64,000 nt of DNA, taken from Bacteroidota bacterium. GTDB lineage: Bacteria > Bacteroidota > Bacteroidia > Palsa-965. Under the pieces are notes generated by a model. That model made no database searches. It was given only the letters and a program-made list of their open reading frames with translations, and had not been told where the DNA came from. The stretch is from assembly GCA_003153435.1 (NCBI GenBank), contig PLYR01000145.1:20034-84033 (forward strand). Reading direction: 5' to 3'. Shown in pieces: positions 28,638-56,852 of the stretch (position 1 is its first letter; each line of letters begins with the position of its first letter). A program made the position numbers and the translations under genes.

Positions 28638-28649
28638 TGATGAATATCA
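28638..28649. promoter_or_regulatory. Candidate CRP/FNR-type operator, the palindrome TGAT-GAAT-ATCA
   Basis: It is a perfect 4-4-4 inverted repeat in the divergent intergenic region. It lies about 80 bp upstream of the terB-like operon and about 100 bp upstream of the divergent REC-CRP gene. Confidence 0.3.
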
Positions 28650-28728
28650 GTTAATCTCTGGATATAGGTCATTCCAGGAAAACAATAGGCGAATTAGATT
28701 TGTCTTGTAATCAACTAATACCATAAAA

Positions 28729-29151
28729 ATGTCTGATATGAACCCTCTTCAAAACCTACATTACGCCCTCGGTGAATTGGCCTATTCGATAGCCCGGGCA
28801 GATGGAAAAGTACAGGAATCGGAAAAAAAACGTTTTCATAGCATTGTGGCCGCCGAACTTCGTTTGGGAAACTATGACTTCGACCTCAGCGATATCATAT
28901 TTCAGATTATGGACAAGGAGCATATTGATACGGAAACTTCCTACCATTGGGCCATGAATGAGATTCGTCTAAACAGCCATTATCTGAGCCCGGAACTAAA
29001 GCAAACATTCATCCGGGTGATGGAAAAGGTGGCCAGAGCCTACCCACCGGTTACCATTCAGGAAAAAGAATTATTGGATAAATTTAAAACGGATATTGCA
29101 ACCATTAATGGTGATCCTGTTTTTTATGAAAAACATAATAAACGCGTCTGA
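28729..29151 (+). CDS. TerB-like (tellurite-resistance / DjlA-N-like) domain protein
   Basis: It has LGELAYSIARADGKVQESEKKRF, which is typical of the TerB helical bundle. It is 140 aa and cytoplasmic. Confidence 0.45.
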   Translation: MSDMNPLQNLHYALGELAYSIARADGKVQESEKKRFHSIVAAELRLGNYDFDLSDIIFQIMDKEHIDTETSYHWAMNEIRLNSHYLSPELKQTFIRVMEKVARAYPPVTIQEKELLDKFKTDIATINGDPVFYEKHNKRV

Positions 29152-29196
29152 GGACGATTAAGAAACGGAATTAGTAAATAGTAAATAAAAATAGCG

Positions 29197-29739
29197 ATGT
29201 TAAATTATAATCCTGTTAACTTTAAGGAAATGAGCCCTTCTGAGCTTTGTGATTACATTGCTAAAAGGCACCATAAATATGTAAGGGAAGAATTTGGGAA
29301 GATCTCAGACCATCTGAAAACAGCTCTGAATGTGGATGTTAATTCAGGCCCCGAGCTGAGAGCAATCATCAAGCTCTTTCATGAATTGCATGACGAACTT
29401 GAGCAACATTTCAATAAGGAGGAGGAAATTCTTTTTCCTTTAGTTCAACAACTGATTATATCTGAGGAGACTGAGCGCGCCAAGAAGAATTTATCTGTAA
29501 GTATCATTGATAAGCCTTTGGAAGAAATGAACAAGGATCATAAAAAGATTGAACGAATTCTCTCTGAGATACGCCGGCTGAGTCATGATTATTTTCTGGA
29601 TCCGATGAGTTCGCCTACTCATAAATTGTGTTTAAATGAATTATTCGCACTGGAAGATGATCTTCACAAACAGTTTTACCTGGAAGAAAATATATTGACA
29701 CCGAAGCTGATTACCTGGGAACAAACCATATTATCATGA
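29197..29739 (+). CDS. Hemerythrin-like HHE cation-binding domain protein
   Basis: It has H/E-rich helices (HHKYVREEF, HELHDELEQHFNKEEEILFP). It is 180 aa. It overlaps the next gene by 4 bp (ATGA). Confidence 0.45.
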   Translation: MLNYNPVNFKEMSPSELCDYIAKRHHKYVREEFGKISDHLKTALNVDVNSGPELRAIIKLFHELHDELEQHFNKEEEILFPLVQQLIISEETERAKKNLSVSIIDKPLEEMNKDHKKIERILSEIRRLSHDYFLDPMSSPTHKLCLNELFALEDDLHKQFYLEENILTPKLITWEQTILS

Positions 29740-30179
29740 TAGCCACACATTCTTATATTGCCGCAGAAGCATTTACCCGGATTTCTCTGGGGATTATCTT
29801 CTTCTCTCAGGGTTATGATAAGGTTTTCAACCTTGGAATTCCCAGTGTCATTAATAATTTTGAATACCCGGTGAGATTGAAGCATCTCCCCAGGTTTCCC
29901 CTTGTTTTTGCAGCATACTTTACATCCATTGTCGAACTCATCGGAGGATTTCTGCTGATTCTCGGCTTCATGAAGTATTATGCCCTCTATTTTTTAGGAA
30001 TAGACCTCCTTATAGTGGTTGCATCGCTCTCTATGCTTGAACCCCTGTGGGATATGAAGCATGTATTTCCAAGAATGCTCCTCCTTGTTATTTTGTTGAT
30101 TATGCCTTCTTCGTGGGGAGTCGTTTCAGTTGATTACCTTTGGTCCATCATACGATTTATACGACATTTCCTATCCTAA
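29736..30179 (+). CDS. DoxX-family integral membrane protein
   Basis: It has four predicted TM helices. The DoxX-like start is RISLGIIFFSQGYDKV. It is 147 aa. Confidence 0.6.
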   Translation: MIATHSYIAAEAFTRISLGIIFFSQGYDKVFNLGIPSVINNFEYPVRLKHLPRFPLVFAAYFTSIVELIGGFLLILGFMKYYALYFLGIDLLIVVASLSMLEPLWDMKHVFPRMLLLVILLIMPSSWGVVSVDYLWSIIRFIRHFLS

Positions 30180-30190
30180 AATATAGTATC

Positions 30191-32286: not shown

Positions 32287-32333
32287 AGAAGATTCAATTA
32301 TCCGCGGTTATTGACAATTGTTATTTTATGCAT

Positions 32334-33425
32334 TCATGGATTAGCCGTCTGAAATGGAATTGTAAAGTAAAGGGTACTACCAAAACCTATTCGGCTCTCC
32401 ACCCAGATCCTGCCACGAGCCTTCTCGACAATTTTCCTCACTATGGAAAGGCCCACTCCTGTACTTTCCACATCTTTCCGGTGGTGGGCCTTCACAAAGA
32501 CGTCAAATATTTTTTCAAAATAGCGTTCTTCTATCCCCATTCCGTTATCCTCTACAAAGAACATCCATTCATTCCCTTTCTTGTCCCACCCAATCTTTAT
32601 TACTCCATCCGGTTTGTCCATGAATTTTACGGCATTCCCAATCAGGTTTTCAAAAACCTCTCTAAGGTGCGTCTTATTGAAAAGCACAGTTGGAAACCGT
32701 TCGGATAAAATGAATTTGATCTTAATCCTGCTGGTATAGCGCTTTGCAATTTCATCCAGCAAATCATTTAAGTTAATCGTTTCAGCCTCCTCCTGGTTGT
32801 TCCCCACCCTGAAATACTCCAGGAGGTCAACGATAAGTGCATTCATGTAGTTGGCTTCCTTTTGTGCTAAATGAAACAGGGTTATAAATTCTTCATCCAT
32901 TTGAGCGGAATATTTTGCAAGACTCAGGTCAAGCACGCCTTTGATTCCATTCAAAGGGTTTTTGAGATCATGAGCTGCAACCCTGGTCAACATTTCCAAT
33001 TCCTTGTTGGCTCTTTCAAGATCCTCCACCAATTGCTTAAGCTGCTCCTCATACCTGATTCGTTCGGTGATATCCTTACCGGATGAGACAAAATGAGTGA
33101 TCTCCCCGGTATCATCACATACCGGAGTAATAGTCTTTTCTTCGAAATAGATCTCTCCGTTCTTTTTTTTGTTACAAACTACTGCGCGAAAGGGTTTCTT
33201 GGCTAGGATCGTCTCCCACATACCTCGGTAGTAATCTTTAGTAGCCCTGCCTGACTGAAGGAATCGTGGATTCTTCCCTAATACCTCCTCAGAAGTATAT
33301 CCTGTTATGGTCTCAAAAGCAGGATTTACGTAGGTTATAGCTCCATCTTTGGTTGTAAAAAATATATTATCGGAGGTGATCTTAATCGCAGAGTCAAACC
33401 CAATGGGGACTGTACTGATATTCAT
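32334..33425 (-). CDS. PAS-domain sensor histidine kinase (cytoplasmic)
   Basis: The PAS motifs are ITYVNPAFETITGY, EEVLGKNPRFLQS. The HisKA H-box is AAHDLKNPLNGI. The HATPase_c boxes N (LIGNAVKF) and G1/G2 (DNGMGI, GVGLSI) are present. Confidence 0.75.
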   Translation of the reverse strand: MNISTVPIGFDSAIKITSDNIFFTTKDGAITYVNPAFETITGYTSEEVLGKNPRFLQSGRATKDYYRGMWETILAKKPFRAVVCNKKKNGEIYFEEKTITPVCDDTGEITHFVSSGKDITERIRYEEQLKQLVEDLERANKELEMLTRVAAHDLKNPLNGIKGVLDLSLAKYSAQMDEEFITLFHLAQKEANYMNALIVDLLEYFRVGNNQEEAETINLNDLLDEIAKRYTSRIKIKFILSERFPTVLFNKTHLREVFENLIGNAVKFMDKPDGVIKIGWDKKGNEWMFFVEDNGMGIEERYFEKIFDVFVKAHHRKDVESTGVGLSIVRKIVEKARGRIWVESRIGFGSTLYFTIPFQTANP

Positions 33426-33466
33426 TTTCTTGTTGTTTATAAAAATGAAAAGTCAGAAACACACAC

Positions 33467-34009
33467 CTATTTTCGAACGCTTGACATCAATTTTAGCGTT
33501 GAACAAAGAACATAGATTACTACAACCATAAATATTAGGGCTGCAAACAAAAGGTATTCAGACATGCTGAACTGATTCAAAATGGAAGCGCTCTGGATTT
33601 TTGGTTCAGCCGAATTTATTGAAGCAGAGCTTACGGGTGTCTCCGTAGGGACGGGCTTAACGGCTTGTGCTGCACCTTCTACCTGAATGAAAGCCAATAC
33701 AGATTTTATCTCTGAATCCTTCAAAGGCTGGTCGGTCATTGGCATTCCATTGTTTTCATTGAATAGACGTACAGCTTCCGGATCACCTGCCTGAACCATC
33801 TTCTGGGATGATTTTATCCATTTTAATGACCAGCTCTCCGGATGCCGGTCATTCACTCCTAAAAGATCCGGACCAACCAATTTGCCTTTGCCGATGGTGT
33901 GACAAGCTCCGCAATTGGCTTTGAATAAAGTTCCTCCATCCTGTCCGGATGAAAGCTGGGCGTAATGCAGAAGGAAAATTGTTGCGATAAATGTGAGTTT
34001 GGTTTTCAT
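33467..34009 (-). CDS. Class I c-type cytochrome with a C-terminal membrane anchor
   Basis: It has a signal peptide. The haem-binding motif is CGACH, and a Met-rich distal region (NGMPM) follows. The C-terminus has a hydrophobic helix (YLLFAALIFMVVVIYVL). Confidence 0.65.
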   Translation of the reverse strand: MKTKLTFIATIFLLHYAQLSSGQDGGTLFKANCGACHTIGKGKLVGPDLLGVNDRHPESWSLKWIKSSQKMVQAGDPEAVRLFNENNGMPMTDQPLKDSEIKSVLAFIQVEGAAQAVKPVPTETPVSSASINSAEPKIQSASILNQFSMSEYLLFAALIFMVVVIYVLCSTLKLMSSVRK

Positions 34010-34153
34010 ACTTGTGTTGATTTAATATGTCTCGAAAGTATTGTGAATACGCAGGGTCGGGAATGACATTTGGCAGATCCCGGGATGATAATTATCAGTG
34101 ATTCGCATTTTAGGGTCTTAAGCCTCCCGAGGTGACATGAATCATGCTCCCAT

Positions 34154-34166
34154 TTGACGTTGATCA
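34154..34166. promoter_or_regulatory. Candidate FNR-type box TTGAC-GTTG-ATCA
   Basis: It matches TTGAT-N4-ATCAA at 8 of 10 positions. It lies in the 360-bp divergent intergenic region between the anchored cytochrome c gene and the porin-like gene. Confidence 0.25.
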
Positions 34167-34368
34167 TTAAGGTAAGACTTGGTTCGGTGCATATTTGTGC
34201 AATCTTAATTCCGAACAATACCAAAACCAAGCAAGATGAAAAAGACAAGAAAAGTTCACTTATCTGGAAGATTACCAACGGACGGCCTCCCAGGGTTGGA
34301 TATACCAAAGTATACAGTGGTTAACGGAAATAAATTGTCAATCAATTAACGAGTTAAAAGTCAAAAAA

Positions 34369-35595: not shown

Positions 35596-35615
35596 CCCTC
35601 CATAAAAACATACTT

Positions 35616-37876: not shown

Positions 37877-37891
37877 ATTGATATGACATCA
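37877..37891. promoter_or_regulatory. CRP/FNR-like inverted repeat TTGAT-ATGAC-ATCAA with a 5-nt spacer
   Basis: The 5-bp arms are perfect. It lies 22 bp upstream of the start codon of 37625-37855. It also lies in the upstream region of the divergent HK/REC-CRP pair. Confidence 0.3.
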
Positions 37892-38142
37892 AAAGTAAAT
37901 GACCTCCTGTTTGTCATGAATGACTTTTGTCAGGCATTGAGGTGAGCTTTGGTCCCAGGTGGTAAATTCCCTGTAGCCAGTTAGAATATGCATAATTCAG
38001 GGTGTAATTAAAGAAAATGTATTTGAGGCAAGAGCCTCTGATAATCAGGCCAAAGGGCCATATATGTCACCCCTGGACATGATAAAAGTCAGTATTTAAG
38101 AACGGGAAAGCTCTCATTTTTGCTAAGTCACTGATATCCATA

Positions 38143-39414
38143 ATGCAACACGTATCACTCTTATTCCATAAATTAGCTGGTAAAATAGACCAGTATATGA
38201 TCAAGAATCTTGAAAGTAATGACATTTTCAAAATATTGTTCGATTCAGCCGGAGAAGGCTTAGTGCTTGCAGACAAGAAAGGAACGATGTTGATGGTCAA
38301 TACCAGGATGGAGGAGATGTTTGGATATGGAAAGGATGAGCTTATCGGTCAACAAGTAGAAGTTTTGATTCCCGAATCTCTTCATTCCCGGCACACTGCC
38401 CATCGGGAAAACTATAATAAACAGCCCAAAAAACGTTCAATGGGTGAAGGCATGGATCTGGTCGGCTGCCGGAAAGACAAAACGACATTACCGATAGAGA
38501 TCAGCCTTAACTATTTCTATTCCGGAGATGAAATGGTTGTGATGGGACTTGTCACCGATATTACCGAAAGAAAAAATACTCAAACACAATTGCTCCAGTT
38601 GAATACGGATCTTGAACAAAGAGTAACGGAACGGACCCAAATGCTAGCCGGTGCCATCAAGGAGTTGGAATATTCAAATAAAAGTCTGGAGAAAGCAGAA
38701 GAAGACCTGAAAAAAGCCCTGGAAGTTGAAAAAGAATTGGGTGAGCTGAAATCCCGATTTGTGTCTACCGCTTCCCATGAATTCCGGACTCCCCTCGCAA
38801 CGATTTTATCATCCGTTTCTCTGATTGCCAGATACGACAAACCAGAAGATAACGAAAAACGACAAAGGCATATTGAGCAGATTAAATTATCGGTAAGTGA
38901 ACTTCGGGAGATCTTAGATGATTTCCTCTCATTGAGTAAACTGGAGGAAGGCAAGATGAGAAATTCCCCGGATACTTTTGAGCTGACCGCTTTTTGCAAA
39001 AATATTGCTGGCGAAATGCAGATGCATGCAAAGTCAGATCAAAAAATTGAATACGTGCATGAAGGTCCAACGGAGATCCATCTCGACCATCAATTACTCA
39101 AAAATGTATTGGTCAATCTGCTTTCCAATGCCATTAAGTTCTCCGGAGAAGGATTGGAAATAACTATAACTTCGATTGTAAAAAATGGAATGCTTGAGAT
39201 TGCAGTGAAGGATAAGGGGCTCGGTATGTCAACGGAAGACCAAAAGCATTTATTTGAGCGTTTCTTCCGGGGGAAAAATGTAGCCGCGATCCAGGGAACT
39301 GGCCTGGGCCTCAATATTGTAAAAAAGTATGTGGAGTTGATGGAAGGCGAAATAAACTTTCAAAGCGAAATTAACAAAGGAACTACCTTTACAGTGTCAT
39401 TTAAATTAGCCTAA
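38143..39414 (+). CDS. PAS-domain sensor histidine kinase (cytoplasmic)
   Basis: It has a PAS domain (GTMLMVNTRMEEMFGYGKDELIGQ), a coiled-coil linker and an H-box (ASHEFRTPLATI). The HATPase_c N/G boxes are present. A REC-CRP regulator gene follows after 24 bp. Confidence 0.75.
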   Translation: MQHVSLLFHKLAGKIDQYMIKNLESNDIFKILFDSAGEGLVLADKKGTMLMVNTRMEEMFGYGKDELIGQQVEVLIPESLHSRHTAHRENYNKQPKKRSMGEGMDLVGCRKDKTTLPIEISLNYFYSGDEMVVMGLVTDITERKNTQTQLLQLNTDLEQRVTERTQMLAGAIKELEYSNKSLEKAEEDLKKALEVEKELGELKSRFVSTASHEFRTPLATILSSVSLIARYDKPEDNEKRQRHIEQIKLSVSELREILDDFLSLSKLEEGKMRNSPDTFELTAFCKNIAGEMQMHAKSDQKIEYVHEGPTEIHLDHQLLKNVLVNLLSNAIKFSGEGLEITITSIVKNGMLEIAVKDKGLGMSTEDQKHLFERFFRGKNVAAIQGTGLGLNIVKKYVELMEGEINFQSEINKGTTFTVSFKLA

Positions 39415-39438: not shown

Positions 39439-40500
39439 ATGTCAAGCACCATTTTACTCATTGAGGACAACACGGCTATGCGGAATAATATTTCAGAAAT
39501 ATTAGAGCTGGCTGGGTATAAGGTATTTCTTGCAGAAAATGGCAAGGTTGGTGTTGATTTAGCTAAAAAGGAAAAGCCGGATTTGATTGTTTGTGATATC
39601 TCCATGCCAGAGTTAGATGGTTATGGCGTTTTGCATATCCTGGGAAAGACTGCCGAGACCTCGGGTATTCCATTCATTTTCCTGACGGCAAAAACCGAGA
39701 AAGCTGATTTTCGAAAGGGTATGACCTTGGGTGCAGATGATTACCTGACTAAACCTTTCGACGATGTGGAACTGTTGGATGTGGTGGCCATTCGATTAAA
39801 AAAAGCATCCCTGCTTAAAAAGGAGTTTGAGAAAACTGCCAAAGGACTCAATGAGTTTATTGATAATGTGAGTGAAAGTCAGGGAATAAGCACCTTTACA
39901 AACAGTCGGAGCCTTAAAACACATAAGAAGAAAGAACTTGTTTTTTCGGAAGGGAATTACCCGATTGGAATCTACCTGGTTAATAAAGGAAAAGTTAAGA
40001 CGTTCAAATCGAATGAAGCCGGAAAAGAACTGATTACCGGTATTCACAAAGAAGGTGATTTTCTAGGCTATGTTCCGCTCTTGGAGGACATTGCTTACAA
40101 TGAATCTGCTGAGGTGCTGGAGGATGCAGAAATTTACATGATTCCCAAACAGGATTTCTTTACTTTGGTTTATAACAATAAAGAAGTATCAAGAAAATTT
40201 ATTCAGTTACTATCCAACAATCTTTCTGAACGAGAAGACCGGCTCATCAAACTGGCTTATAACTCCGTACGAAAAAGAGTGGCAGAAGCCCTGGTCATGC
40301 TTCATGACCGGTACCAGAGTACAAACTCAGCCAAAACCCCAATCTCCATTAATCGTGAAGACCTGGCAGGAATTGTTGGAACGGCTACAGAATCGGTCAT
40401 CCGTACCTTAGGTGATTTTAAAGATGAAAAGCTGATTGAAATTCAAAAAGGAGATATATCTGTTCTGAATATCGATAAATTAACAAAGCTGAAAAATTAA
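39439..40500 (+). CDS. Receiver / cNMP-binding / Crp-HTH fusion regulator. It is a paralogue of the gene at 27480-28541.
   Basis: It has the same three-domain order. The receiver motifs are LLIEDN, DLIVCDISMP, LTAK. The HTH is REDLAGIVGTATESVIRTL. It shares about 55-60% identity with the other copy by eye. Confidence 0.75.
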   Translation: MSSTILLIEDNTAMRNNISEILELAGYKVFLAENGKVGVDLAKKEKPDLIVCDISMPELDGYGVLHILGKTAETSGIPFIFLTAKTEKADFRKGMTLGADDYLTKPFDDVELLDVVAIRLKKASLLKKEFEKTAKGLNEFIDNVSESQGISTFTNSRSLKTHKKKELVFSEGNYPIGIYLVNKGKVKTFKSNEAGKELITGIHKEGDFLGYVPLLEDIAYNESAEVLEDAEIYMIPKQDFFTLVYNNKEVSRKFIQLLSNNLSEREDRLIKLAYNSVRKRVAEALVMLHDRYQSTNSAKTPISINREDLAGIVGTATESVIRTLGDFKDEKLIEIQKGDISVLNIDKLTKLKN

Positions 40501-40545: not shown

Positions 40546-40695
40546 TTGCTTATATTCTTTGATTCTATCTCTCTCCTGATTTATCCTGCTTTAAATCATA
40601 CTTATCAATGAGTCCGGTCATTTTACCAGATTGACAATGGAACTAGATTTGTTTAGTTAACAAATTTATGTTTCACATTGATTAAGTATATAAAA

Positions 40696-43333: not shown

Positions 43334-43529
43334 CGCCTTATTTAAGATTTTTGTTCCCCGCACTTAGGAAGCACAGGAACAAATATATGGTTTACACGGC
43401 ATTCCAGGTATGAGGATAATCAGAATATGGATGATTAATATCATAATTCCCCATATAGTAATTGAAGACATTTATAAGGATTTAAAAAGCATCAATAATT
43501 GAAAACATTTAATTAGCAATCGTGAACCC

Positions 43530-44279: not shown

Positions 44280-44418
44280 CAAGGACCTTATTCCTTCATG
44301 ACTATTATCATGAGATCAGAAAAAGAAGTATAGGATATTTGTTTAACACCAATATAGTTTAGAATAATTATAAAGCAATTGTACTCAAATCATCAACATC
44401 TTAAAGACCAAAGTAGCT

Positions 44419-46200: not shown

Positions 46201-46203
46201 AGT

Positions 46204-48123: not shown

Positions 48124-48360
48124 GTTGTTGGGGTTTTAGGTTTCCTGTAATATAATTTTCACCATGCATCATAAAGTGATCGCATGTTTTTAAGGTTTTT
48201 TTGTTTACGAAACAAAGGTATCTGCCTGATTTTGACCTGAAATGATCTTACACGGTAATCTGACTGACCTTCGTCATACTTATATTCAAACAAAAAAATA
48301 CCTAATACAGCTGAAAACAGGGAGGGTATCTTTATTATTTTAATTATAGAATGATAACGC

Positions 48361-48409
48361 TCTTTGAAAAACGGAACCCAATCAATCTGATTGGGTTCCG
48401 TTTTTCAAA
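48361..48409. terminator. Perfect 23-bp-stem hairpin with a 3-nt loop. It is probably the relic terminator of a decayed hsp20 gene.
   Basis: The sequence is CTTTGAAAAACGGAACCCAATCA-ATC-TGATTGGGTTCCGTTTTTCAAAG. The stop codon of the Hsp20 remnant lies inside the stem. Confidence 0.5.
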
Positions 48410-48519
48410 GACACTTGAATTTCTTTCTCGGAAAGAACTTTGCTGATTTCTTTCTTGGGAATTGTTAGGTGCAGGACACCATCCGTGTATTTAGCGTCAA
48501 TTTTATCGGCATTTACAGT
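48381..48519 (-). pseudogene. Remnant of a small heat-shock protein (Hsp20/alpha-crystallin family). Only the C-terminal roughly 45 codons are left, with no start codon.
   Basis: The minus-strand translation is TVNADKIDAKYTDGVLHLTIPKKEISKVLSEKEIQVSLKNGTQSD*. This matches the conserved sHSP C-terminus (..A.Y.DGVL.LT.PKKE..). An in-frame TAA sits immediately upstream, and all frames are closed beyond it. Confidence 0.45.
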
Positions 48520-48711
48520 TTATAGAACAAAACTACTTCACCTGTTAGCTATTCAAAGGGCTGGTCTCAATGCTCAGGATGATTGTTGTCAGAATTGACA
48601 ATTGGCCCAATAAAAGTGCCAGAATGACAGCCTGATTTCTTGCTCAATCTTTAAATAAGACTTCTAATAAAGGATAAAGAGCAAAGGTCCGCCAGAGTTT
48701 GCACTTTCAAC

Positions 48712-49160
48712 TTGATTACGTGTACTCCTACAATACTCGGAGTAACTATTACAAGAGTAGGAGTAACTATTACAATACTCGGAGTAACTATTACAAGAGT
48801 AAAAGTAACTCTTACAAGAGTAGGAGTTACTATTACTAGACTCGGAGTAACAATTACAAGAGTAAAAGTAACTTTTATAAGAGTAAAAGTAACTCTTACA
48901 ATTGTAGGAGTGACTTTTACAAGAGTAAGAGTAACTATTACTACACTCGGAGTAACAATTACAAGAGTAAAAGTAACTTTTACAGTAGTAAGGTGTACTC
49001 CTACAATACTCGGAGTAACTTTTACTATTGTAGGAGTAACTCCTACTACACTCGGAGTAACTATTACTATTGTAGGAGTACACCTTATTACTTCCGAAGT
49101 CACTTTTACAACATCGGAAGGTACTCTTACGAGCTTCGGAGCATCTCCGAAGCTACCCGG
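48712..49160. repeat. Tandem array of about 21 copies of a 21-bp unit. The consensus is approximately TAACTATTACAAGAGTAGGAG, with variable 3' heptamers CTCGGAG, GTAGGAG and GTAAAAG.
   Basis: The period is directly visible. Two frames on each strand are free of stops. This yields heptad translations VTITRVG (+) or TPTLVIV / YSYNSKS (-). It accounts for four overlapping predicted ORFs at 48651-49505. Confidence 0.8.
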
Positions 49161-49538: not shown

Positions 49539-50978
49539 CTATTTCTGAACCACACTGAGCTTCAGGACCTGGTTATGGCCATCATGGGTTAGCAGTACAA
49601 AATAAACACCGCTGGCCTGATCGGACATTTGCAGTAAGATTGTATCGGATCCTCTGGCTATATAAGCAGAAATAGATTCGCCCAGGCAATTGTATATCCT
49701 GACTTCATCTAATGGATTTGTATTTCTGATCTGAAAACTCCCATCAACTGAAGGGTTCGGGAAAATGAAAACTTGCTTAATTGAAGTCATCTCCAGAATT
49801 CCTGTATTCAGAGGTTGCGATTTGAACTGAATTTCATCAATTTTCAGATCAGAGCCTACATAGGTGAGAGAAGAATCCTGCCAGGATGAGGAGCCAATCT
49901 GAACAATAACAGAATCCGGGGTTTGGCCAAGCTGCAGTGGTATTTCAACATAAGTGTAACTTGCTGAAGCATGCAGGTTTTTCCCCATACTGAAAATCGA
50001 AGAGCCATTTTTCTTAAACTGGAGACTCAGGTTTGCGCTGTCATTTCCTGAAGGAATATATTTATAGTAAAAGGACAATGTATCTGTCATATTTGTGAAA
50101 GGATAACCGCCTTTCCATATGCAGTTGTTTCCACTACAAAAGCCTGTACTTACCTGACCGGGTGCTGCCACAACAGTATTATTGTTATTACCCAAATAGG
50201 TTTTCAATTCCAATGCGTAATTGCCTTTTGCAGCATCGGTAGTCCGATAAATGCCATCACCCTGATCGTCGGTATTGAGATACCAGCTGTTGGGGCTATT
50301 AATTGTTTTGCTCTGCCAGAGTTCGAAATCCCCATTCATGAGTGCTGGTTGCGAAGTTACTCCGGTGAAGGAAACACTGTCTATCTGCAGCATGCTTCCA
50401 TTCAAGGGGAGGTTCTTGTTCATAAAATCGCTTGAAGCTGCGGCAAAGATTACCGTATCGGGAGTTACGGTGAGTGCCGGACTAAACGTGAAGGCAAAAG
50501 GGGTATAAGATCCGTGTGTACCGTATAGGGCGAAAACATATGCCCCAATTGGATGTCCGCCTGATTTGAAATAAGCCAGAATCCTGGCTGTATCGCCTGC
50601 AGGCACTGTCGATTTATAATAACCCCTGATACCATGTGGTTTTTGGGTGTAAGGCATGCCGCCTGGCCAAAAGGAGGTGGGACTGCCATTCGGAAATCCG
50701 CTGATGAAATAGCCTGTGCATGCATTATTTCCGGAACCTATCGTAGTTAGTTTTACCGCGGTTGCACCGTGGTAAGCATCGGTAGTCTTCACACAATTAA
50801 ATCCCGAATTACATCTAATTACTGCCGAAGGATTTGAGGTGGTTGGATAATTTTGTGGATAATCAAAAACTGCCGTATTCCAGTTTTCGAAACTCCCGTT
50901 AGGGATCGCATTTTGCGATAATGCCAGGTTGCTGAGTAAACAGCAGGAAGCCGCGAGTAAGTATAGATTTGTTTTCAT
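49539..50978 (-). CDS. Secreted protein with a T9SS type-A C-terminal sorting domain. The N-terminal roughly 390 aa have no known function.
   Basis: It has a signal peptide. The C-terminal roughly 80 aa match the Por_Secre_tail pattern (FPNPS...Y.L.G......QAS.GVYFV..T.DG......KL...). There is no catalytic motif. Confidence 0.65.
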   Translation of the reverse strand: MKTNLYLLAASCCLLSNLALSQNAIPNGSFENWNTAVFDYPQNYPTTSNPSAVIRCNSGFNCVKTTDAYHGATAVKLTTIGSGNNACTGYFISGFPNGSPTSFWPGGMPYTQKPHGIRGYYKSTVPAGDTARILAYFKSGGHPIGAYVFALYGTHGSYTPFAFTFSPALTVTPDTVIFAAASSDFMNKNLPLNGSMLQIDSVSFTGVTSQPALMNGDFELWQSKTINSPNSWYLNTDDQGDGIYRTTDAAKGNYALELKTYLGNNNNTVVAAPGQVSTGFCSGNNCIWKGGYPFTNMTDTLSFYYKYIPSGNDSANLSLQFKKNGSSIFSMGKNLHASASYTYVEIPLQLGQTPDSVIVQIGSSSWQDSSLTYVGSDLKIDEIQFKSQPLNTGILEMTSIKQVFIFPNPSVDGSFQIRNTNPLDEVRIYNCLGESISAYIARGSDTILLQMSDQASGVYFVLLTHDGHNQVLKLSVVQK

Positions 50979-51263
50979 GTTTGGAGTTTTAATTGCGAAT
51001 GAGCAAAAGTGAGACTAACCAATCAATGAAACAATGATTGGGCTTAGTGTACCATCTGATTTTTGTCACCCGGGCCTTTTCGCGTTCTCCTTTGGAGTTA
51101 GGTAATCTGGTAAATGTCATTTTCAGATCTGATTTTGATCATCAATTTTGAGCTATAAATCCTGTTGATTTGCCTTATAAATGAATTCCGAAAGACGAAA
51201 GCAACAAAATCATCAATGTCCGAAGTTGTTTTTCCAAAGTATAGAGTTACATAATCAGGTTAA

Positions 51264-52676
<1,413 letters not shown>

Positions 52677-52842
52677 GTAATCAGCAGAAATATTTCAATT
52701 TAAGAACGATTTGTGTGCAACTATGACTAAAATCAGTATTTAGTAAGCAAAAAGAAGATAGTTTTGTCACCATAATAAAACAGAGGTTTAGATCTCTTTT
52801 AATCCAATGTTCTGTTTTTAGAAATGAAAACAATTTAATTAT

Positions 52843-53304: not shown

Positions 53305-53345
53305 AATTTCAGATCAGTTTAAATTTTATATCAAAGCACTTAATT

Positions 53346-53846: not shown

Positions 53847-53860
53847 GAATACCTTGTTCT

Positions 53861-55222
53861 TTAAATGGTTTGACTCAATCGAACTTTATTGGATTCATTG
53901 TTCCGCATTCTTGCATCAAATGCCATGCAGATATTCCTGATAAAAGGTAAACCATTTTGAAGTATTTGAACACCATATTTCTCGGTTCTCAATAAACCAT
54001 CTTTTTCAAATTCCTTTAGTTCTTGAACAGTTCTTTCGAGAGTCTCAAACTGTTCATGTTCTTGTTCCCACGAAGTATAGCCATAGCACATAATGTTCAG
54101 AATGTGTTTCCGGAGAATAGTATCCTCTTTAGAAAGAAGATGCCCCTTGAAGAAAGGAAGGGTATTTTCATCGACTCTTTTGTAATAATCTTCTACTTTC
54201 TTCTCATTTTGTATAAATGCTGTCCACGAGTCGCTGATAGAGGAGACTCCCAGTCCGATAAGTAAACGGGTTGAATGGGAGTTATATCCCATAAAGTTCC
54301 GGTGAAGATGTTTCTCTATTTTGGCATGGTAGAGGCTATCCGTAGGCAGTGCAAAATGATCCATCCCAATTTCCTCGTACCCTTTCAGAGCAAGCATTTG
54401 CCGCCCTGTTTCATATAATTCAAGCTTCTCCTCATTTGCAGGAAGATCAGCTTCAGTAAATTTTCTTTGCCCGGGTTTTATCCAGGGTATGTGAGCGTAG
54501 CTGTAAAATGCAATTCTATCGGGTAGCAAAGTACTGACCTTCTCTATGGTTGTAATAATGCCAGCTTTCGTTTGTTTTGGAAGACCATAGATCAGATCAA
54601 AGTTAATAGATGTAAAACCTATTTTACGGCTCCAGTCGGTTAATCGTTTTACATGTTCAAAAGGTTGTACCCTGTTTACTATTTCCTGCACAACAGGATC
54701 AAAATCCTGAACACCAATACTTATTCTCTTAAAGCCAAGTGCATATAATGTTTTCAAATGTTCTTCCGTAGTATTATTTGGATGTGCCTCAAAGCTAAAT
54801 TCACTTTCAGGGCATCTGGTAGCGGATGAAAGGATGCTATGGATAAGCATTTGCAGATTTTCAGGGCTGAAAAACGTCGGAGTTCCACCACCCAGATGAA
54901 GTTCTTTTATCCGCGGTTTTTCCTCAAACAGTTCAAGATATAGCGCCCATTCTTTAAGAACAGCATTAATATACATCTTCTCTACTGCATGGTTCACTGT
55001 GATACGGGTATTACAGCCACAATACGTACAAAGACTCTCGCAAAAGGGCAAATGAATATATATACTAATACCTTCCTTACTGTTTGTTTTCTGGAAAGTA
55101 AATTTTACTTCATTTTCCCATTCACTTTTGGAAGGAGGTTCGGTCCAAAATGGAACCGTTGGGTAACTGGTATACCTAGGCCCTGGAATATTGTATTTGG
55201 AAAAAAGATTTTTTACTGGCAT
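53861..55222 (-). CDS. hemN: Oxygen-independent coproporphyrinogen III oxidase (radical SAM)
   Basis: It has the radical-SAM CxxxCxYC motif (CESLCTYCGC). The HemN N- and C-domains are present. It is 453 aa. Confidence 0.8.
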   Translation of the reverse strand: MPVKNLFSKYNIPGPRYTSYPTVPFWTEPPSKSEWENEVKFTFQKTNSKEGISIYIHLPFCESLCTYCGCNTRITVNHAVEKMYINAVLKEWALYLELFEEKPRIKELHLGGGTPTFFSPENLQMLIHSILSSATRCPESEFSFEAHPNNTTEEHLKTLYALGFKRISIGVQDFDPVVQEIVNRVQPFEHVKRLTDWSRKIGFTSINFDLIYGLPKQTKAGIITTIEKVSTLLPDRIAFYSYAHIPWIKPGQRKFTEADLPANEEKLELYETGRQMLALKGYEEIGMDHFALPTDSLYHAKIEKHLHRNFMGYNSHSTRLLIGLGVSSISDSWTAFIQNEKKVEDYYKRVDENTLPFFKGHLLSKEDTILRKHILNIMCYGYTSWEQEHEQFETLERTVQELKEFEKDGLLRTEKYGVQILQNGLPFIRNICMAFDARMRNNESNKVRLSQTI

Positions 55223-55256
55223 AGATACAAAAGTATGGTGAGCTTAGAAGAGCATT

Positions 55257-55272
55257 CATGACTTTTGTCATG
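55257..55272. promoter_or_regulatory. Perfect 16-bp palindrome CATGAC-TTTT-GTCATG (TGAC-N4-GTCA core). It is a CRP/FNR/Dnr-type site upstream of hemN.
   Basis: Its centre is about 42 bp upstream of the hemN start codon. Both arms are fully complementary. Confidence 0.35.
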
Positions 55273-55363
55273 AGCTCACATGACCTTGAAGATCATAGCA
55301 ATGTCGGTTGCCATATGAATCGGGGTGGAAGGGTACTAGTATACGCAAATAAGATGTAGCCTT

Positions 55364-55987
55364 CTAAGCAATTTCTCTTCCAGGAGTAAACAGGATTTCA
55401 AAATCCTTTTGAAGGGAGATTCCTTTATCTTGCGAATACCAAAGATGAAGGTTATTGAGAAATTCCTCATGTAAAACATCCGGTTTCTTTGCTTTAAACT
55501 CTTTTACCAATTGTTGAATAAGAGAAGATCTCGGGCCCCAGCTGGCTATCTGGCGACCAGACTCCCTTTCAATACAGATCAATTTTGGAATTGAACGTGA
55601 GCCGTTGGTTAAATAGTTATCCATTAGATCCAAATTTTGATCTCTGAGCAGGATCCGGAGTTCAATATTTTTAGAATAAGAGGCAATATTTGCAATTATG
55701 GGAATATTTTGCGCCCCATCTCCGCACCAGGATTCCGCGAAAAGCACCCATACTTGAGGAGTGCTTATGGCGCTAATATTTCTGATTAGTTTCTGATTTG
55801 AAATCCCTTGTTTTGAAATACGCTTCATGCGTGTTGCGTTTAATCTTGTGGCTGCAATCCGTTCTACGGGTTGGTCTTTACCTGTTGTCAGTCCATATTC
55901 GGCGCACATCACTACAAGATCGCTGTATTCCTCATAAGGGTAGGAAATTTTATTTTCAATTTTATTTAAAGTTGCGGATGGGCTCAT
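55364..55987 (-). CDS. Thioredoxin-fold protein with a WCGDG (CxxC-like) motif
   Basis: It has VLFAESWCGDGAQN. The start is placed at the internal ATG (MSPSATL) at 55987. It is 208 aa. Confidence 0.45.
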   Translation of the reverse strand: MSPSATLNKIENKISYPYEEYSDLVVMCAEYGLTTGKDQPVERIAATRLNATRMKRISKQGISNQKLIRNISAISTPQVWVLFAESWCGDGAQNIPIIANIASYSKNIELRILLRDQNLDLMDNYLTNGSRSIPKLICIERESGRQIASWGPRSSLIQQLVKEFKAKKPDVLHEEFLNNLHLWYSQDKGISLQKDFEILFTPGREIA

Positions 55988-56066
55988 GTCGAATAGATTA
56001 TTTAGACAAATGAACTCAAAAGACAGCCTCCATACTATGAGGATGCTCATAGTATGGAACTATTTG

Positions 56067-56831
56067 CTAATCGGTCAGATTTGCAATTTCGATTAACTCC
56101 TGAAGATTGATGATTTTTATTTTTTTCCCTATAAGGTCAATGTATTTTCTTTTTTTGAGGTCCGAAAGGGTACGAATAGCTGTTTCAGTAGTTGTTCCTG
56201 CAATGTTTGCTATGTTTTCCCGGGTGATTTTAGAATTTAGGGTGCAACCATCTGCTTCACACCCAAAAAAATCTTTCAACATTAGAATTGTTTCAGCAAT
56301 TCTTTCATGAACATTTTTTTGGGCAAGGTCCATCGCTTTCTGCTCCGCTGATTTCAGATCAGATGACAATAATCGCATGATTTGCGATATGACCAGTGGA
56401 TTTGTTACAATCAGGTTTTGATAAGTCGCTTTAGGAAAGAAACAAATAGTGGAGTCCTCCAGGGCAGTTGCAGAAGCATGATAGCAATCATCGCTTAGGA
56501 GGGCTCTATAACCTATTACCTGACCTTTTTTAGCAAGCCTTAATATCTGATCTTTCCCGTCATGGCCAAGTTTGTGTATTTTTACCTTTCCCGAGTAGAT
56601 ACAATGCAATCCGAGGGGATGATTGCGTTCAAAAAATATGACTTGGCCTTTTTTATAGGTATTGAACGATTTTGAGTGAGAAAGTTCTTGTAAATCAAGT
56701 TTGCTCAAGGCACAGAAAATAGAATCTTTGGCGCTATCACACTTCTCACACGGTGTAGCTTCGTAAAGTGTTCTTGATGAAATGTTCATGGTGTTTGAAA
56801 TAGGTTGAGTGAAGATCCAACTATTGCTCAT
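56067..56831 (-). CDS. CRP/FNR-family transcription regulator with an N-terminal Cys cluster (FNR-like, putative Fe-S oxygen sensor)
   Basis: The N-terminus is ..TPCEKCDSAKDSIFC.. The cNMP-like beta-roll follows. The C-terminal HTH is RENIANIAGTTTETAIRTL. An alternative ATG lies at 56789. Confidence 0.7.
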   Translation of the reverse strand: MSNSWIFTQPISNTMNISSRTLYEATPCEKCDSAKDSIFCALSKLDLQELSHSKSFNTYKKGQVIFFERNHPLGLHCIYSGKVKIHKLGHDGKDQILRLAKKGQVIGYRALLSDDCYHASATALEDSTICFFPKATYQNLIVTNPLVISQIMRLLSSDLKSAEQKAMDLAQKNVHERIAETILMLKDFFGCEADGCTLNSKITRENIANIAGTTTETAIRTLSDLKKRKYIDLIGKKIKIINLQELIEIANLTD

Positions 56832-56840
56832 ACTATTAAA

Positions 56841-56852
56841 TGACGAAGATCA
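56841..56852. promoter_or_regulatory. Candidate FNR box TGAC-GAAG-ATCA in the fnr / nnrS-like divergent intergenic region
   Basis: It matches TTGAT-N4-ATCAA with one arm mismatch. It lies 49 bp upstream of the ATG at 56901. Confidence 0.3.

Follow-up and report, generated by a model that had tools for sequence, protein, structure and literature searches.

Recurring palindromes in the intergenic regions

Do the short palindromes that recur in front of the stress and anaerobic genes of this locus represent operators, and which regulators would then act on them in response to which signal? The first-pass annotation had collected five of them by eye as FNR/CRP-type sites. All five strings are present, and four are exact copies of one motif, TGAY-N4-RTCA (at 28638, 34155, 55259, and 56841, the second and third having been placed at 34154 and 55257). 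The remaining string at 37877 (TTGAT-ATGAC-ATCAA, with a 5-nt spacer) does not match this motif and shares bases with the -7 box TACTTTTG in the small-membrane-protein/PDO-rhodanese promoter. It was rejected as operator, and the true box of this promoter is TGACTTTTGTCA at 37921. The inventory had to be extended, because the intergenic sites number at least 16, several of them in 22-bp tandems. The matrix proposed at that time, TTGAY-N4-RTCAA, is not enriched (6 matches at up to one mismatch versus 13 expected). The consensus of the recurring palindromes is the 12-base box TGAY-N4-RTCA with the extended form ATGAY-N4-RTCAT, the outer base being A in 56-75% and T in 6-11% of the sites.

In the window, which is the whole 64-kb stretch of DNA analysed, the box is found 20 times compared to 5.3 +/- 2.4 expected copies, and no shuffle out of 100 gave as many as 20. 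The intergenic DNA, which with its 5829 bp comprises 9.1% of the window, contains 16 of these copies (binomial 8e-14), all of them within 27.4-56.9 kb. A first-order Markov model of the intergenic DNA predicts 0.45 copies (Poisson 8e-20), and the intergenic enrichment is about 40-fold (Fisher odds ratio about 40). A similar density in coding DNA, named by the first-pass annotation as evidence against a regulon, was looked for and not seen; the copies are concentrated between the genes. Among spacers of 0-10 nt the enrichment in the window is confined to 4 nt, the identical half-sites with control spacers of 0-3 or 5-10 nt giving 2-9 matches each, of which 0-2 are intergenic.

Short palindromes are common in AT-rich DNA such as the intergenic DNA here, and boxes with one mismatch are not enriched overall in the window (13 intergenic versus 101 coding). 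It is nevertheless hardly conceivable that the boxes are chance palindromes or structural elements like terminators and repeats. This is refuted by the Markov expectation, the spacer specificity, the fixed distance to the -7 box, and the conservation over 138 loci (see below). In addition, a stem of only 4 bp around a 4-nt loop is too weak for a terminator, and Rfam gave no matches. Judged by their sequence, the palindromes are real candidate binding sites for FNR/CRP-type regulators.

Position of the boxes relative to the promoters

The sites in the window are listed by coordinate. Boxes are given without strand, and offsets are counted from the box centre.
27460..27471: box TGATTTTAATCA, distal (about -63.5), 127-aa gene 26989-27372 (-); -7 box TATTTTTG (TTTG +54, TCAT half-site +22; - strand)
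28638..28649: box TGATGAATATCA (first-pass site 1), common to two divergent promoters, proximal (-41.5) for REC-CRP1 and distal for the terB-hemerythrin-doxX-usp-nramp operon; -7 boxes TAATTTTG (TTTG +32, - strand) and TAGATTTG (TTTG +55, + strand)
28660..28671: one-mismatch box GGATATAGGTCA, 22 bp from 28638, proximal for the terB operon; TAGATTTG TTTG +33, + strand
34064..34075: one-mismatch box TGACATTTGGCA, 22 bp from 34086, proximal, cytochrome c/PAS-kinase-1 operon (-)
34086..34097: box TGATAATTATCA, distal, cytochrome c (33467-34009, -)/PAS-kinase-1 operon; by our reading of the offsets the -7 box variant TACTTTCG starts at +51
34133..34144: box TGACATGAATCA, distal, 408-aa gene at 34369 (+), forms a perfect 22-bp tandem with 34155; CATATTTG TTTG +55, + strand
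34155..34166: box TGACGTTGATCA (first-pass site 2), proximal tandem partner of 34133; CATATTTG TTTG +33
37921..37932: box TGACTTTTGTCA, small-membrane-protein/PDO-rhodanese operon (-); TACTTTTG TTTG +33, - strand
38080..38091: box TGATAAAAGTCA, proximal, PAS-kinase-2/REC-CRP2 operon; CATTTTTG at 38115-38122
40587..40620: boxes TGCTTTAAATCA and TGAGTCCGGTCA, each with one mismatch and spaced by 22 bp, a candidate tandem upstream of YHS-domain gene 40678 (+); TAGATTTG TTTG at +55 and +33 from the respective centres
43411..43443: one-mismatch box TGAGGATAATCA (43411) and box TGATTAATATCA (43432), 21 bp apart, upstream of the AI-2E transporter/acetyl-CoA hydrolase operon (-); TATATTTG TTTG +54 and +33, - strand
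44299..44310: box TGACTATTATCA, proximal, 223-aa membrane-protein gene 44419 (+); GATATTTG TTTG +33
48265..48276: box TGACCTTCGTCA, distal, 117-aa gene/mlaEFD operon (-); TACCTTTG TTTG +54, ATCAT half-site +22
48580..48591: box TGATTGTTGTCA, upstream of an Hsp20 gene remnant (-); TAGTTTTG TTTG +54
51057..51068: box TGATTTTTGTCA, distal, gene of a T9SS-sorted 479-aa protein (49539-50978, -); CACTTTTG TTTG +55, ATCAT half-site +22
51108..51141: one-mismatch box TGGTAAATGTCA (51108) and box TGATTTTGATCA (51130), 22 bp apart, upstream of beta-eliminating lyase gene 51273 (+); TTGATTTG TTTG +33 from 51130
52724..52735: box TGACTAAAATCA, proximal, operon of two cytochrome c genes (52843, +); TAGTTTTG TTTG +33
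55228..55235, - strand: predicted sigma-A -7 box TACTTTTG of the hemN promoter, offset +29, which puts the 55259 box at -41.5
55259..55270: box TGACTTTTGTCA within CATGACTTTTGTCATG (first-pass site 4), proximal, hemN (-)
56841..56852: box TGACGAAGATCA (first-pass site 5), proximal, 417-aa membrane-protein gene (+); CATATTTG TTTG +32, + strand

The Bacteroidota -7 box (TAnnTTTG) begins about 29 or about 51 bp from the centre at 15 of the 16 intergenic sites but at none of the four coding sites (P about 2e-12). Because the sigma-A -7 box occupies -12 to -5 (PMC9723704), the site centres are placed at about -41.5 and -63.5, the classical activator positions. Six tandem pairs with a spacing of 21-22 bp are found in the window, and in a pool of 232 sites TAnnTTTG is most frequent at +29 and +51, a second site at +22. 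The boxes appear to serve about 15 operons of a 30-kb "low-oxygen island" at a fixed activator distance from the promoters. The T9SS protein, mla, the beta-eliminating lyase, and the CHAD neighbourhood are targets outside the classical low-oxygen gene set.

The box at 56841 lies 15 bp upstream of the start codon of the gene for the FNR-like regulator, which is therefore likely autoregulated, by either activation or repression. The "nnrS-like" label of the first-pass annotation, assigned to a gene next to this box, has no support from Pfam or NCBIfam. hemN scores above its NCBIfam equivalog cut-off (453 > 325 bits). For the PAS-kinase-2/REC-CRP2 operon autoregulation through the 38080 box is predicted. 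The core of this site is invariant across the orthologous kinase promoters of the homologous loci L002-L004, which have otherwise diverged (footprint), and PDO-rhodanese has orthologous upstream boxes in the same loci.

Regulators and kinases

The window encodes three CRP-family regulators, as had been proposed, two REC-cNMP-HTH_Crp fusions and one Cys-rich FNR-like protein, and two PAS histidine kinases.
27480..28547, - strand: REC-CRP1, receiver, cNMP-like domain, and Crp-type HTH (Pfam), recognition helix PETAIR
32334..33425, - strand: PAS histidine kinase 1, NifL/LOV-like PAS without photoactive Cys, co-transcribed with cytochrome c
38143..39414, + strand: PAS histidine kinase 2, PAS domain akin to the haem-binding PAS of FixL (BjFixL 7e-18; the proximal His aligns)
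39439..40500, + strand: REC-CRP2, encoded in the kinase-2 operon, recognition helix TESVIR
56067..56831, - strand: FNR-like regulator, conserved Cys28, Cys31, Cys77, and Cys130, recognition helix TETAIR

The E-x2-I-R recognition helix is common to all three regulators and present in 79 of the 79 REC-CRP homologues read and in most FNR-like homologues. Since the DNA-reading residues (T/P-E-x-x-I-R) are the same, both kinds of regulators probably act on the same box. The FNR-like protein scores below the NCBIfam Fnr cut-off (95 versus 228 bits) and has no residue aligned to E. coli Cys29. REC-CRP2 does not retain the residues with which E. coli CRP contacts cAMP (E72->Y, R82->E). Homologues of the REC-CRP fusions comprise at least 8000 protein clusters with generic names throughout, and the fusions represent a class of response regulators that is very common across the Bacteroidota but uncharacterised. 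A kinase gene is located directly upstream of the REC-CRP gene in 74 of 79 loci, the partner kinase of the Hymenobacteraceae differing in its N-terminal architecture. Kinase 1 is a possible partner of the orphan REC-CRP1, a pairing that we infer. When the kinase-2 PAS domain alone was compared to the PDB, every match was a haem-PAS domain or an unnamed multi-sensor kinase. The distal Arg220 of FixL is replaced by Met, and the ligand could therefore be other than O2.

Homologous loci in other Bacteroidota

The motif is enriched near both regulator types in 138 unrelated loci from different genera. The 80 loci around REC-CRP homologues (1.44 Mb) contain 304 boxes, of which 228 are intergenic, compared to only 9-27 intergenic matches for other spacers, and the density is maximal within 2 kb of the REC-CRP gene. 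Boxes are found upstream of usp (48 sites, 51 genes), PAS kinases, hemA-like genes (32/34), ccoN (8/13), ccoI, ccoG, and hemerythrin; a strict box within 300 bp upstream is present in only 23 of 79 kinase/REC-CRP operons. The 58 loci around homologues of the FNR-like protein contain 142 boxes (86 intergenic), which peak within 1 kb of the FNR-like gene and precede ccoN (12/15), ccoI, and the FNR-like gene itself. In these loci ATGAY-N4-RTCAT has 62 matches (52 intergenic) versus 7 (2 intergenic) for TTGAY-N4-RTCAA. Across the homologous loci hemN and the regulator genes also bear boxes, and the site logos near REC-CRP and FNR-like genes are nearly identical.

It could be that the FNR-like Fe-S protein is the sole binder and that the REC-CRP fusions, using a different, undetected motif, are merely co-located. 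A REC-CRP gene within 10 kb is absent from 56 of the 58 FNR-like loci, in spite of which the box is enriched, with its maximum at the FNR-like gene, and ccoNOQP and ccoGHIS in these loci are classical FNR targets. However, the box is equally enriched in the 80 REC-CRP loci, only two of which have an FNR-like gene, it peaks next to the REC-CRP genes and precedes kinase/REC-CRP operons, the recognition helix does not vary among the REC-CRPs and is the same as in the FNR-like family, and other spacers revealed no further enriched palindrome in the window. An FNR-like protein acting alone is thus very unlikely. The reverse, that only the REC-CRP fusions bind, preferring tandems, and that the FNR-like protein is their target with its own specificity, could explain why full 22-bp tandem pairs account for 38% of the sites in REC-CRP loci versus 13% in FNR-like loci (Fisher 1.5e-5), an excess that fits a receiver-mediated dimer-of-dimers. 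We consider this very unlikely as well, because boxes cluster tightly at FNR-like genes on contigs without REC-CRP, the DNA-reading residues are identical in both types, and single boxes at -41.5 are common (e.g. hemN and the two-cytochrome-c operon).

A putative low-oxygen regulon

The earlier suggestion that one or more CRP/FNR regulons span the stress and anaerobic loci is borne out by every in-silico test available, namely the intergenic enrichment of the motif, its 4-nt spacer specificity, its phasing with the promoters, the conservation of its core, and its co-localisation with both regulator families. From these observations and the domain and residue features of the proteins we infer binding, activation, the O2 signal, and the usage of sites by the regulators. 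The palindromes are quite probably the operators of a low-oxygen (microaerobic/hypoxia) regulon with CRP/FNR-family activators, an Fe-S FNR-like protein and REC-CRP fusions controlled by phosphorylation. ATGAY-N4-RTCAT would be a Bacteroidota form of the FNR/FixK "anaerobox". The promoters would have class II geometry, with a dimer at about -41.5 in place of the sigma-A -33 element, and at many of them a second dimer would bind 22 bp upstream at about -63.5. The FNR-like protein would sense O2 directly via a Cys-ligated Fe-S cluster. In the REC-CRP fusions, phosphorylation of the N-terminal receiver would turn on the Crp-type DNA-binding module, the phosphodonor of REC-CRP2 presumably being the co-transcribed kinase with the FixL-like haem-PAS domain. 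Such a fusion would amount to FixJ and FixK in a single protein. Predicted to be induced are stress and persistence genes (usp, hemerythrin, terB, doxX, nramp, and the Hsp20 remnant), the genes of c-type cytochromes and acetyl-CoA hydrolase, hemN for oxygen-independent haem synthesis, PDO-rhodanese for sulfide detoxification, mla for lipid transport, and the regulator genes; hemA, ccoNOQP, and ccoGHIS would join the regulon in related genomes.

The regulon might also be real but respond to a signal other than O2 limitation, like NO or nitrosative stress, CO, the redox state, or general stationary-phase stress. Haem-PAS and Fe-S sensors also sense NO and CO, the distal Arg is replaced as described, the PAS of kinase 1 probably binds flavin, and general stress genes (usp, terB, Hsp20) are numerous among the targets. 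Such a signal is nonetheless unlikely, because the conserved core targets are the hallmark microaerobic set (cbb3 oxidase with its assembly genes, hemN, and hemA), NO reductase, hcp, and nir genes were not seen among the targets, and cbb3 oxidase and haem synthesis are induced by low O2 in Flavobacterium psychrophilum (PMC9723704).

Comparison with known systems

The putative low-oxygen regulon shares with E. coli FNR (box TTGAT-N4-ATCAA; also Pseudomonas Anr) the TGA-N6-TCA core, the location at the class II position -41.5, hemN and high-affinity oxidases among the targets, and a box at the regulator gene. The FNR-like protein has the Cys-rich N-terminus and the central Cys (E. coli C20, C23, and C122 align), but Cys77 is conserved instead of a fourth ligand at C29, and its recognition helix reads T-E-x-x-I-R where FNR has V-E-T-I-S-R. 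The outer base of the box is A and not T, the canonical matrix not being enriched, and the promoters are of the Bacteroidota sigma-A type (-7 TAnnTTTG). A haem-PAS histidine kinase, a Crp-type activator, and the targets fixNOQP/ccoNOQP, fixGHIS/ccoGHIS, hemN, and hemA are reminiscent of rhizobial FixL-FixJ-FixK. However, there is neither a FixJ-type (LuxR-HTH) regulator nor a separate FixK, the receiver being fused to the Crp-type module, the distal Arg220 is not conserved, and the FixL and FixK NCBIfam models score far below their cut-offs.

Burkholderia cenocepacia's lxa locus, named for its activation by low oxygen, is a similar island of intergenic TGA-N6-TCA boxes (17 versus 16 here) with several usp genes, class II ribonucleotide reductase, alpha-crystallin/Hsp20, Anr-like CRP regulators, and two-component systems, and its regulator has likewise not been assigned (PMC3721108). 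It differs in phylum and promoter type, and its regulators are separate CRP proteins and classical response regulators and not REC-CRP fusions (PMC3721108). Bacteroides thetaiotaomicron Crp/Cur/MalR (BT4338) belongs to the same family and phylum, and JGI names some REC-CRP homologues after it, but it has no receiver domain, and its motif is TATGTTnTAnAACATA with a sugar-utilisation regulon (PMC3878776). Paralogous regulators with near-identical boxes and overlapping regulons are described for Dinoroseobacter shibae FnrL/Dnr (PMC5398030). In such multi-paralogue CRP/FNR cascades one member senses O2 by an Fe-S cluster and others take other inputs, but the secondary regulators here would receive theirs by phosphotransfer to the fused receiver. 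Pseudomonas Anr/Dnr and Rhizobium FnrN/FixK are likewise paralogues sharing one box. Mycobacterium tuberculosis DosS/DosT-DosR also combines haem-sensor kinases, a response regulator, and many hypoxia-induced usp genes, but its sensors are of the GAF-haem type, its output domain is LuxR-type, and its DNA motif is unrelated.

The box and its distribution in the window

The inverted repeat TGAY-N4-RTCA, a candidate operator of the CRP/FNR type that we call the box, occurs 20 times in the window, compared with 5.3 +/- 2.4 matches expected from dinucleotide-preserving shuffles, and none of 100 shuffled windows reached 20 matches. All 20 boxes are located between 27460 and 62708. In a gene map derived from listed ORFs and Pfam domains, intergenic DNA amounts to 5829 bp or 9.1% of the window, and it contains 16 of the 20 boxes (binomial P 8e-14), compared with 0.45 predicted when this DNA is described by a first-order Markov model (Poisson 8e-20). 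The motif is thus not found at equal density in coding or random DNA, and the proposal of the first-pass annotation that one or more CRP/FNR regulons span these loci is supported in silico. Only the 4-nt spacer is enriched: the same half-sites separated by 0-3 or 5-10 nt have two to nine matches each in the window, zero to two of them intergenic, and show no enrichment. One-mismatch boxes are as a class not enriched in the window either (13 intergenic, 101 coding), and were retained only if they were 21-22 bp from a strict box or phased with a -7 box.

The first-pass annotation had picked out five palindromes by eye, at 28638, 34154, 37877, 55257, and 56841, and had proposed the matrix TTGAY-N4-RTCAA. 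All five strings are present at these positions, and four of them contain the box (starting at 28638, 34155, 55259, and 56841). The palindrome at 37877 does not, and was rejected as a regulator site: its spacer is 5 nt long, and it coincides in part with TACTTTTG, the -7 box of the promoter to which it had been assigned; the real box of this promoter is TGACTTTTGTCA at 37921. The matrix had to be replaced by TGAY-N4-RTCA, since at up to one mismatch it gives 6 matches in the window versus 13 expected and is not enriched. The observation of recurring palindromes is real, and had been understated. The box has the inverted repeat with the TGA-N6-TCA core of the FNR-type operator class, and does not match the canonical FNR consensus TTGAT-N4-ATCAA with its outer T.

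Genes next to the boxes

Three genes of the CRP/FNR family are present in the window, together with two genes for PAS histidine kinases. Two of the regulators are REC-CRP fusions, which share 59% identity.

Regulator and kinase genes of the window (domains from Pfam)
27480-28547, minus strand: REC-CRP1, receiver, cNMP-like and Crp-HTH domains
32334-33425, minus strand: kinase 1, PAS histidine kinase
38143-39414: kinase 2, PAS histidine kinase, immediately 5' of the REC-CRP2 gene
39439-40500, plus strand: REC-CRP2, receiver, cNMP-like and Crp-HTH domains
56067-56831, minus strand: FNR-like protein

Boxes precede the terB-hemerythrin-doxX-usp-nramp operon, three cytochrome c loci, the operon of the small membrane protein and the persulfide dioxygenase-rhodanese, the AI-2E transporter/acetyl-CoA hydrolase operon, the mla operon, the genes of a beta-eliminating lyase and of a T9SS-sorted protein, and hemN (an NCBIfam equivalog with 453 bits at a cut-off of 325 bits). 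They also precede the regulator genes themselves. From the boxes that stand before the kinase/REC-CRP operon, before REC-CRP1, and before the FNR-like gene, auto- or cross-regulation is predicted; at the FNR-like genes the site-to-start distances are too variable, and the start codons too uncertain, to indicate its sign. The earlier gene calls were confirmed by Pfam. Even at E<=1, no Pfam or NCBIfam family matches the polytopic membrane protein of 417 residues (56901-58154, plus strand) whose gene is apparently driven by the box at 56841, and its label nnrS-like had to be dropped.

Promoter geometry

The primary sigma factor of the Bacteroidota reads a -7 box, TAnnTTTG, that spans -12 to -5 (PMC9723704). 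Counting from the box centre towards a gene, 15 of the 16 intergenic boxes have a TTTG at +31 to +35 or +53 to +57, as opposed to none of the four boxes in coding regions; the chance of such phasing is 0.14 per site, resulting in P about 2e-12 for the window. At the sixteenth intergenic box (34086), reading the sequence by eye reveals a variant -7 box, TACTTTCG, starting at +51. Pooling 232 sites from the window and the related loci described below, TAnnTTTG peaks sharply at +29 and +51, and there is a further peak for a second box 22 bp away, centre to centre (ATGAC at +15, GTCAT at +24). Because the -7 box covers -12 to -5, the boxes are centred at -41.5 and -63.5 relative to the predicted start sites. 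Class II activators are centred at -41.5, and class I activators at about -61.5 or further upstream. With respect to the predicted starts, the proximal box thus has the placement that is classical for CRP/FNR activators of class II, and the -63.5 position is another 22-bp step, or two helical turns, upstream of it.

Allowing one-mismatch partners, the window contains six tandem pairs with a distance of 21-22 bp.

Tandem pairs of boxes in the window
28638/28660
34064/34086
34133/34155
40587/40609
43411/43432
51108/51130

Full tandem pairs account for 38% of the sites in the loci related to REC-CRP2 versus 13% in those related to the FNR-like gene (Fisher 1.5e-5). This hints at a preference of the fusions for tandems, which might, speculatively, be mediated by receiver-receiver contacts between two Crp-type dimers.

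At hemN (window 55222-55270) only 42.5 bp separate the box centre from the annotated ATG, with 5 bp between this codon and the end of the predicted -7 box. The hemN mRNA would therefore have no leader, or almost none, unless a start codon further downstream is the true one.

Conservation in related loci

Relatives of REC-CRP2 were collected with one genome per species, and the best 80 loci (1.44 Mb) of at least 474 confirmed relatives were kept. They derive from Pontibacter, Rufibacter, Adhaeribacter, Nibribacter, Imperialibacter, Chitinophagaceae, Sphingobacteriia, and many uncultured lineages; the closest relatives among the matches listed belong to uncultured Bacteroidia. In these best 80 of at least 474 loci the box is present in 304 copies, of which 228 are intergenic, compared with 9-27 intergenic matches, without enrichment, for every other spacer. 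The density of boxes is highest within 2 kb of the fusion gene, and in 74 of 79 loci the next gene on its 5' side encodes a PAS kinase. The genes that boxes precede most often in the same best 80 loci encode usp proteins (48 sites for 51 genes), PAS kinases (68 sites for 131 genes), hemA-like proteins (32 of 34), and ccoN (8 of 13), and further ccoI, ccoG, hemJ-like proteins, hemerythrin, and a conserved protein of 127 residues. The hemA, cco, and hemJ assignments are based on reading representative sequences and not on a Pfam scan. In the closest of these relatives (L002-L004) the orthologous kinase promoter has a mean column identity of only 47%, yet the core of the proximal box is invariant; a half-site and a full box, located 22 and 44 bp upstream of it, respectively, have been kept as well.

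Relatives of the FNR-like gene were obtained by a metagenome scan, which provided 58 loci. These contain 142 boxes, 86 of them intergenic, while other spacers have at most nine intergenic matches. The extended form ATGAY-N4-RTCAT is found 62 times (52 intergenic) versus seven times (two intergenic) for TTGAY-N4-RTCAA. Here, the boxes are densest within 1 kb of the FNR-like gene, and in 56 of the 58 loci no fusion gene is nearby. The targets are ccoN (12 of 15), ccoI, ccoP, hemerythrin, and the FNR-like gene itself. The CRP-type repeat TGTGA-N6-TCACA (four matches, one intergenic) and the HcpR2-type repeat GTAAC-N4-GTTAC, both counted in the 58 FNR-like loci only, are not enriched there. Boxes cluster near homologues of both regulator types, in 138 loci altogether; because of this clustering in both sets, the two families co-localise with the same box. 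A conserved box is present at activator positions before conserved respiratory, haem-synthesis, and stress genes.

Consensus and reading of the DNA

The 5' flanks of the boxes are A-rich. In REC-CRP loci the base beside TGA is A at 56% and T at 11% of the sites; the corresponding values for FNR-like loci are 75% and 6%. With ATGAY fixed and the other half read unbiased, ATCAT (116) and GTCAT (114) come first, followed by RTCAG, RTCAC, and RTCAA, with CTCA as a minor variant of the second half-site. The consensus is therefore ATGAY-N4-RTCAT.

In FNR, S212 contacts the outer T of the half-site. At the positions of FNR V208-E209-x-x-S212-R213 the three regulators of the window read P/T-E-x-x-I-R, and E-x-x-I-R is present in all 79 REC-CRP homologues read and in most FNR-like homologues; the box co-localises with two regulator families that have DNA-reading residues in common. 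The recognition helix of the FNR-like protein is T-E-T-A-I-R instead of E209-x2-S212-R213, with S212 replaced by Ile in 48 and V208 by Thr in 44 of 51 homologues. Rodionov et al. (PMC1274295) showed co-variation between residue 180 of CRP and the outer base of the half-site. Given this co-variation and the contact of S212 with the T, the outer base may plausibly have switched from T to A because Thr/Ile replaced Val/Ser. Sites of the fusions could not be told from sites of the FNR-like proteins, because the logos are nearly identical and the recognition helices the same; only the frequency of tandems differs.

The FNR-like protein

The product of 56067-56831 consists of a cNMP-like beta-roll and a C-terminal Crp-type HTH (Pfam PF00027, PF13545, PF00325). 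Where E. coli FNR has C20, C23, and C122, this protein keeps Cys, as do 47-49 of 51 homologues. The position of E. coli C29 is a Ser, and Cys77, conserved in 50 of 51 homologues, could be the fourth cluster ligand. The protein scores 94.9 bits against the NCBIfam model NF008365 (Fnr), which is below the cut-off of 228. Judged from these residues and scores, it is better called an FNR-like regulator, probably of the Fe-S type, than an FNR orthologue.

The REC-CRP fusions and the PAS kinases

The receiver domains of the fusions match PF00072 with 98-102 bits, and both fusions contain the motifs DLI(I/V)CD, FLTAK, and TKPF, which comprise the acidic pocket, the Thr, and the Lys. With these motifs and, for REC-CRP2, the co-transcribed histidine kinase, the fusions are predicted to be response regulators. 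REC-CRP2 does not fit the CRP class, which is characterised by E72 and R82 and by R180-E181-R185 reading TGTGA: compared with E. coli CRP, the cAMP contacts E72 and R82 are replaced by Tyr and Glu, and R180 by Thr. The PDB matches include no structure of a whole fusion, the halves matching CRP/FNR and receiver structures separately, and no NCBIfam model scored above its cut-off on REC-CRP. Homologues comprise at least 8000 protein clusters, which carry generic names only ('response regulator', 'CRP-like cAMP-binding protein/CheY-like').

The best PDB matches of the PAS domain of kinase 2 alone are the FixL haem domains of Bradyrhizobium and Rhizobium (7e-18) and DosP, and the 14 matches comprise nothing but haem-PAS proteins and one unnamed kinase of the multi-sensor type. 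The proximal His (in 'SRH'; FixL His200) aligns and is kept in close homologues. The domain is thus predicted to bind haem and to be FixL-like. The distal Arg220 of FixL stabilises bound O2; this position is Met in kinase 2 and M/K/Q/E/R across homologues. In the Hymenobacteraceae (L013, L014, and other loci; Pontibacter, Rufibacter, Nibribacter) the partner kinase of REC-CRP has another N-terminal architecture, in which a receiver-like segment appears to stand at the start instead of the FixL-like PAS domain. Because of this different N-terminus, the sensory input may differ between lineages.

The PAS domain of kinase 1 is NifL/LOV-like. It reads NPRFLQ where LOV domains have NCRFLQ, and the photoactive Cys is therefore absent. 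Kinase 1 may be a flavin redox sensor. Its gene is in an operon with a cytochrome c gene, and the orphan REC-CRP1 is a possible partner of this kinase.

Comparison with known systems

The FNR/Anr box has the TGA-N6-TCA core and the class II placement in common with the box described here, but has an outer T instead of A, and the FNR-like protein differs from FNR/Anr in its cysteines, helix, and NCBIfam score. The phylum's characterised Crp-family regulator, Crp/Cur (BT4338) of Bacteroides, recognises another motif, TATGTTnTAnAACATA, and controls a sugar-utilisation regulon (PMC3878776), in contrast to the respiratory and stress targets found here. The HcpR2 box, GTAAC-N4-GTTAC (PMC1274295), also differs from ATGAY-N4-RTCAT. 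In Flavobacterium psychrophilum, cbb3 oxidase and haem synthesis are induced at O2 limitation according to the transcriptome in PMC9723704, the available part of which names no regulator for this response.

The FixLJ-FixK cascade resembles the present system in its haem-PAS kinase (predicted here), its Crp-type activator, and its cco, hemN, and hemA targets. However, FixJ (REC and LuxR-type HTH) and a separate FixK are missing here, and receiver, cNMP-like domain, and Crp-HTH are combined in one chain encoded beside the kinase.

Regarded as an island, the region has its best described analogue in the lxa locus of Burkholderia cenocepacia, which comprises 50 genes, 17 intergenic TGA-N6-TCA boxes, six usp genes, a class II ribonucleotide reductase, an alpha-crystallin, Anr-like regulators, and two-component systems (PMC3721108). 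The window, too, has a ribonucleotide reductase gene and an Hsp20 remnant.

Proposed mechanism

At low O2, the FNR-like protein with its Fe-S cluster and the phosphorylated fusions would bind the box and recruit RNA polymerase, the phosphodonor of REC-CRP2 being the deoxy form of the haem-PAS kinase 2. The proximal dimer at -41.5 would take the place of a -33 element, and at many promoters a second dimer would bind two helical turns upstream. More broadly, the pair of REC-CRP and haem-PAS (FixL-like) kinase might constitute a phylum-wide, one-step O2-sensing pathway of the Bacteroidota, in which the FixJ and FixK steps are merged into a phosphorylation-gated Crp-type activator that binds ATGAY-N4-RTCAT boxes phased by 22 bp as a receiver-bridged dimer of dimers. 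By sharing these boxes with a parallel Fe-S sensor, the FNR-like protein, it would control a two-input low-oxygen regulon of cbb3 oxidase, haem synthesis, and usp/hemerythrin persistence. We propose this broader pathway tentatively and give it somewhat less than an even chance.

The box itself belongs to an operator type already known, of which it is a variant, and the most interesting element is the widespread REC-CRP paired with a FixL-like kinase. A literature search for REC-CRP fusions or the ATGAY-N4-RTCAT box in Bacteroidota found nothing relevant, and low-O2 sensing appears essentially uncharacterised in the aerobic and microaerophilic members of the phylum (Cytophagales, Chitinophagales, Sphingobacteriales, and uncultured lineages). 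For these, the analysis offers an operator consensus, a promoter architecture, a conserved target set, and two candidate sensor-regulator pairs. If confirmed, REC-CRP would be a new output class of two-component signalling, and hypoxia regulons could be predicted directly from Bacteroidota genomes and metagenomes.

Other features of the window

A C-terminal remnant of an Hsp20/alpha-crystallin gene (...IDAKYTDGVLHLTIPKKE...) is located at about 48350-48490 on the minus strand. The box at 48580, together with a phased -7 box, lies before this remnant and a hairpin lies after it; stop codons are found upstream, and the N-terminal part is absent. It looks like a decayed member of the regulon. The one-mismatch boxes ATGATGCCGCTCAT (60292-60303) and ATGAGCAGAGTCAT (63034-63045), neither of which has a phased TTTG, are upstream of an unknown gene of 619 residues and of the ribonucleotide reductase gene, respectively. 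Because a class II reductase belongs to the lxa island of Burkholderia, these genes may be weak members of the regulon.

Just upstream of the island, a T9SS-sorted surface protein of 2112 residues with SprB-repeat, PKD, and CHU_C domains is encoded at 20133-26471 (minus strand). The GC content is about 0.50 at this gene versus 0.37-0.43 in the island, and the first 27 kb of the window contain no boxes. The SprB, CHU_C, and Por_Secre_tail domains encoded in the window assign the organism to the Bacteroidota. Rfam and tRNA scans of the window revealed neither structured RNAs nor tRNAs.

A 21-bp unit, GGAGTAACTATTACAAGAGTA, is repeated in sixteen tandem copies at 48739-49080, each with the palindrome GTAA-N3-TTAC. 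The array is part of a 1.4-kb stretch without a convincing gene, in which ORFs are open in several frames, probably as artefacts of the repeat. A similar cluster was found in none of the 138 related loci. One possibility is that the units form a phased array of protein-binding sites.
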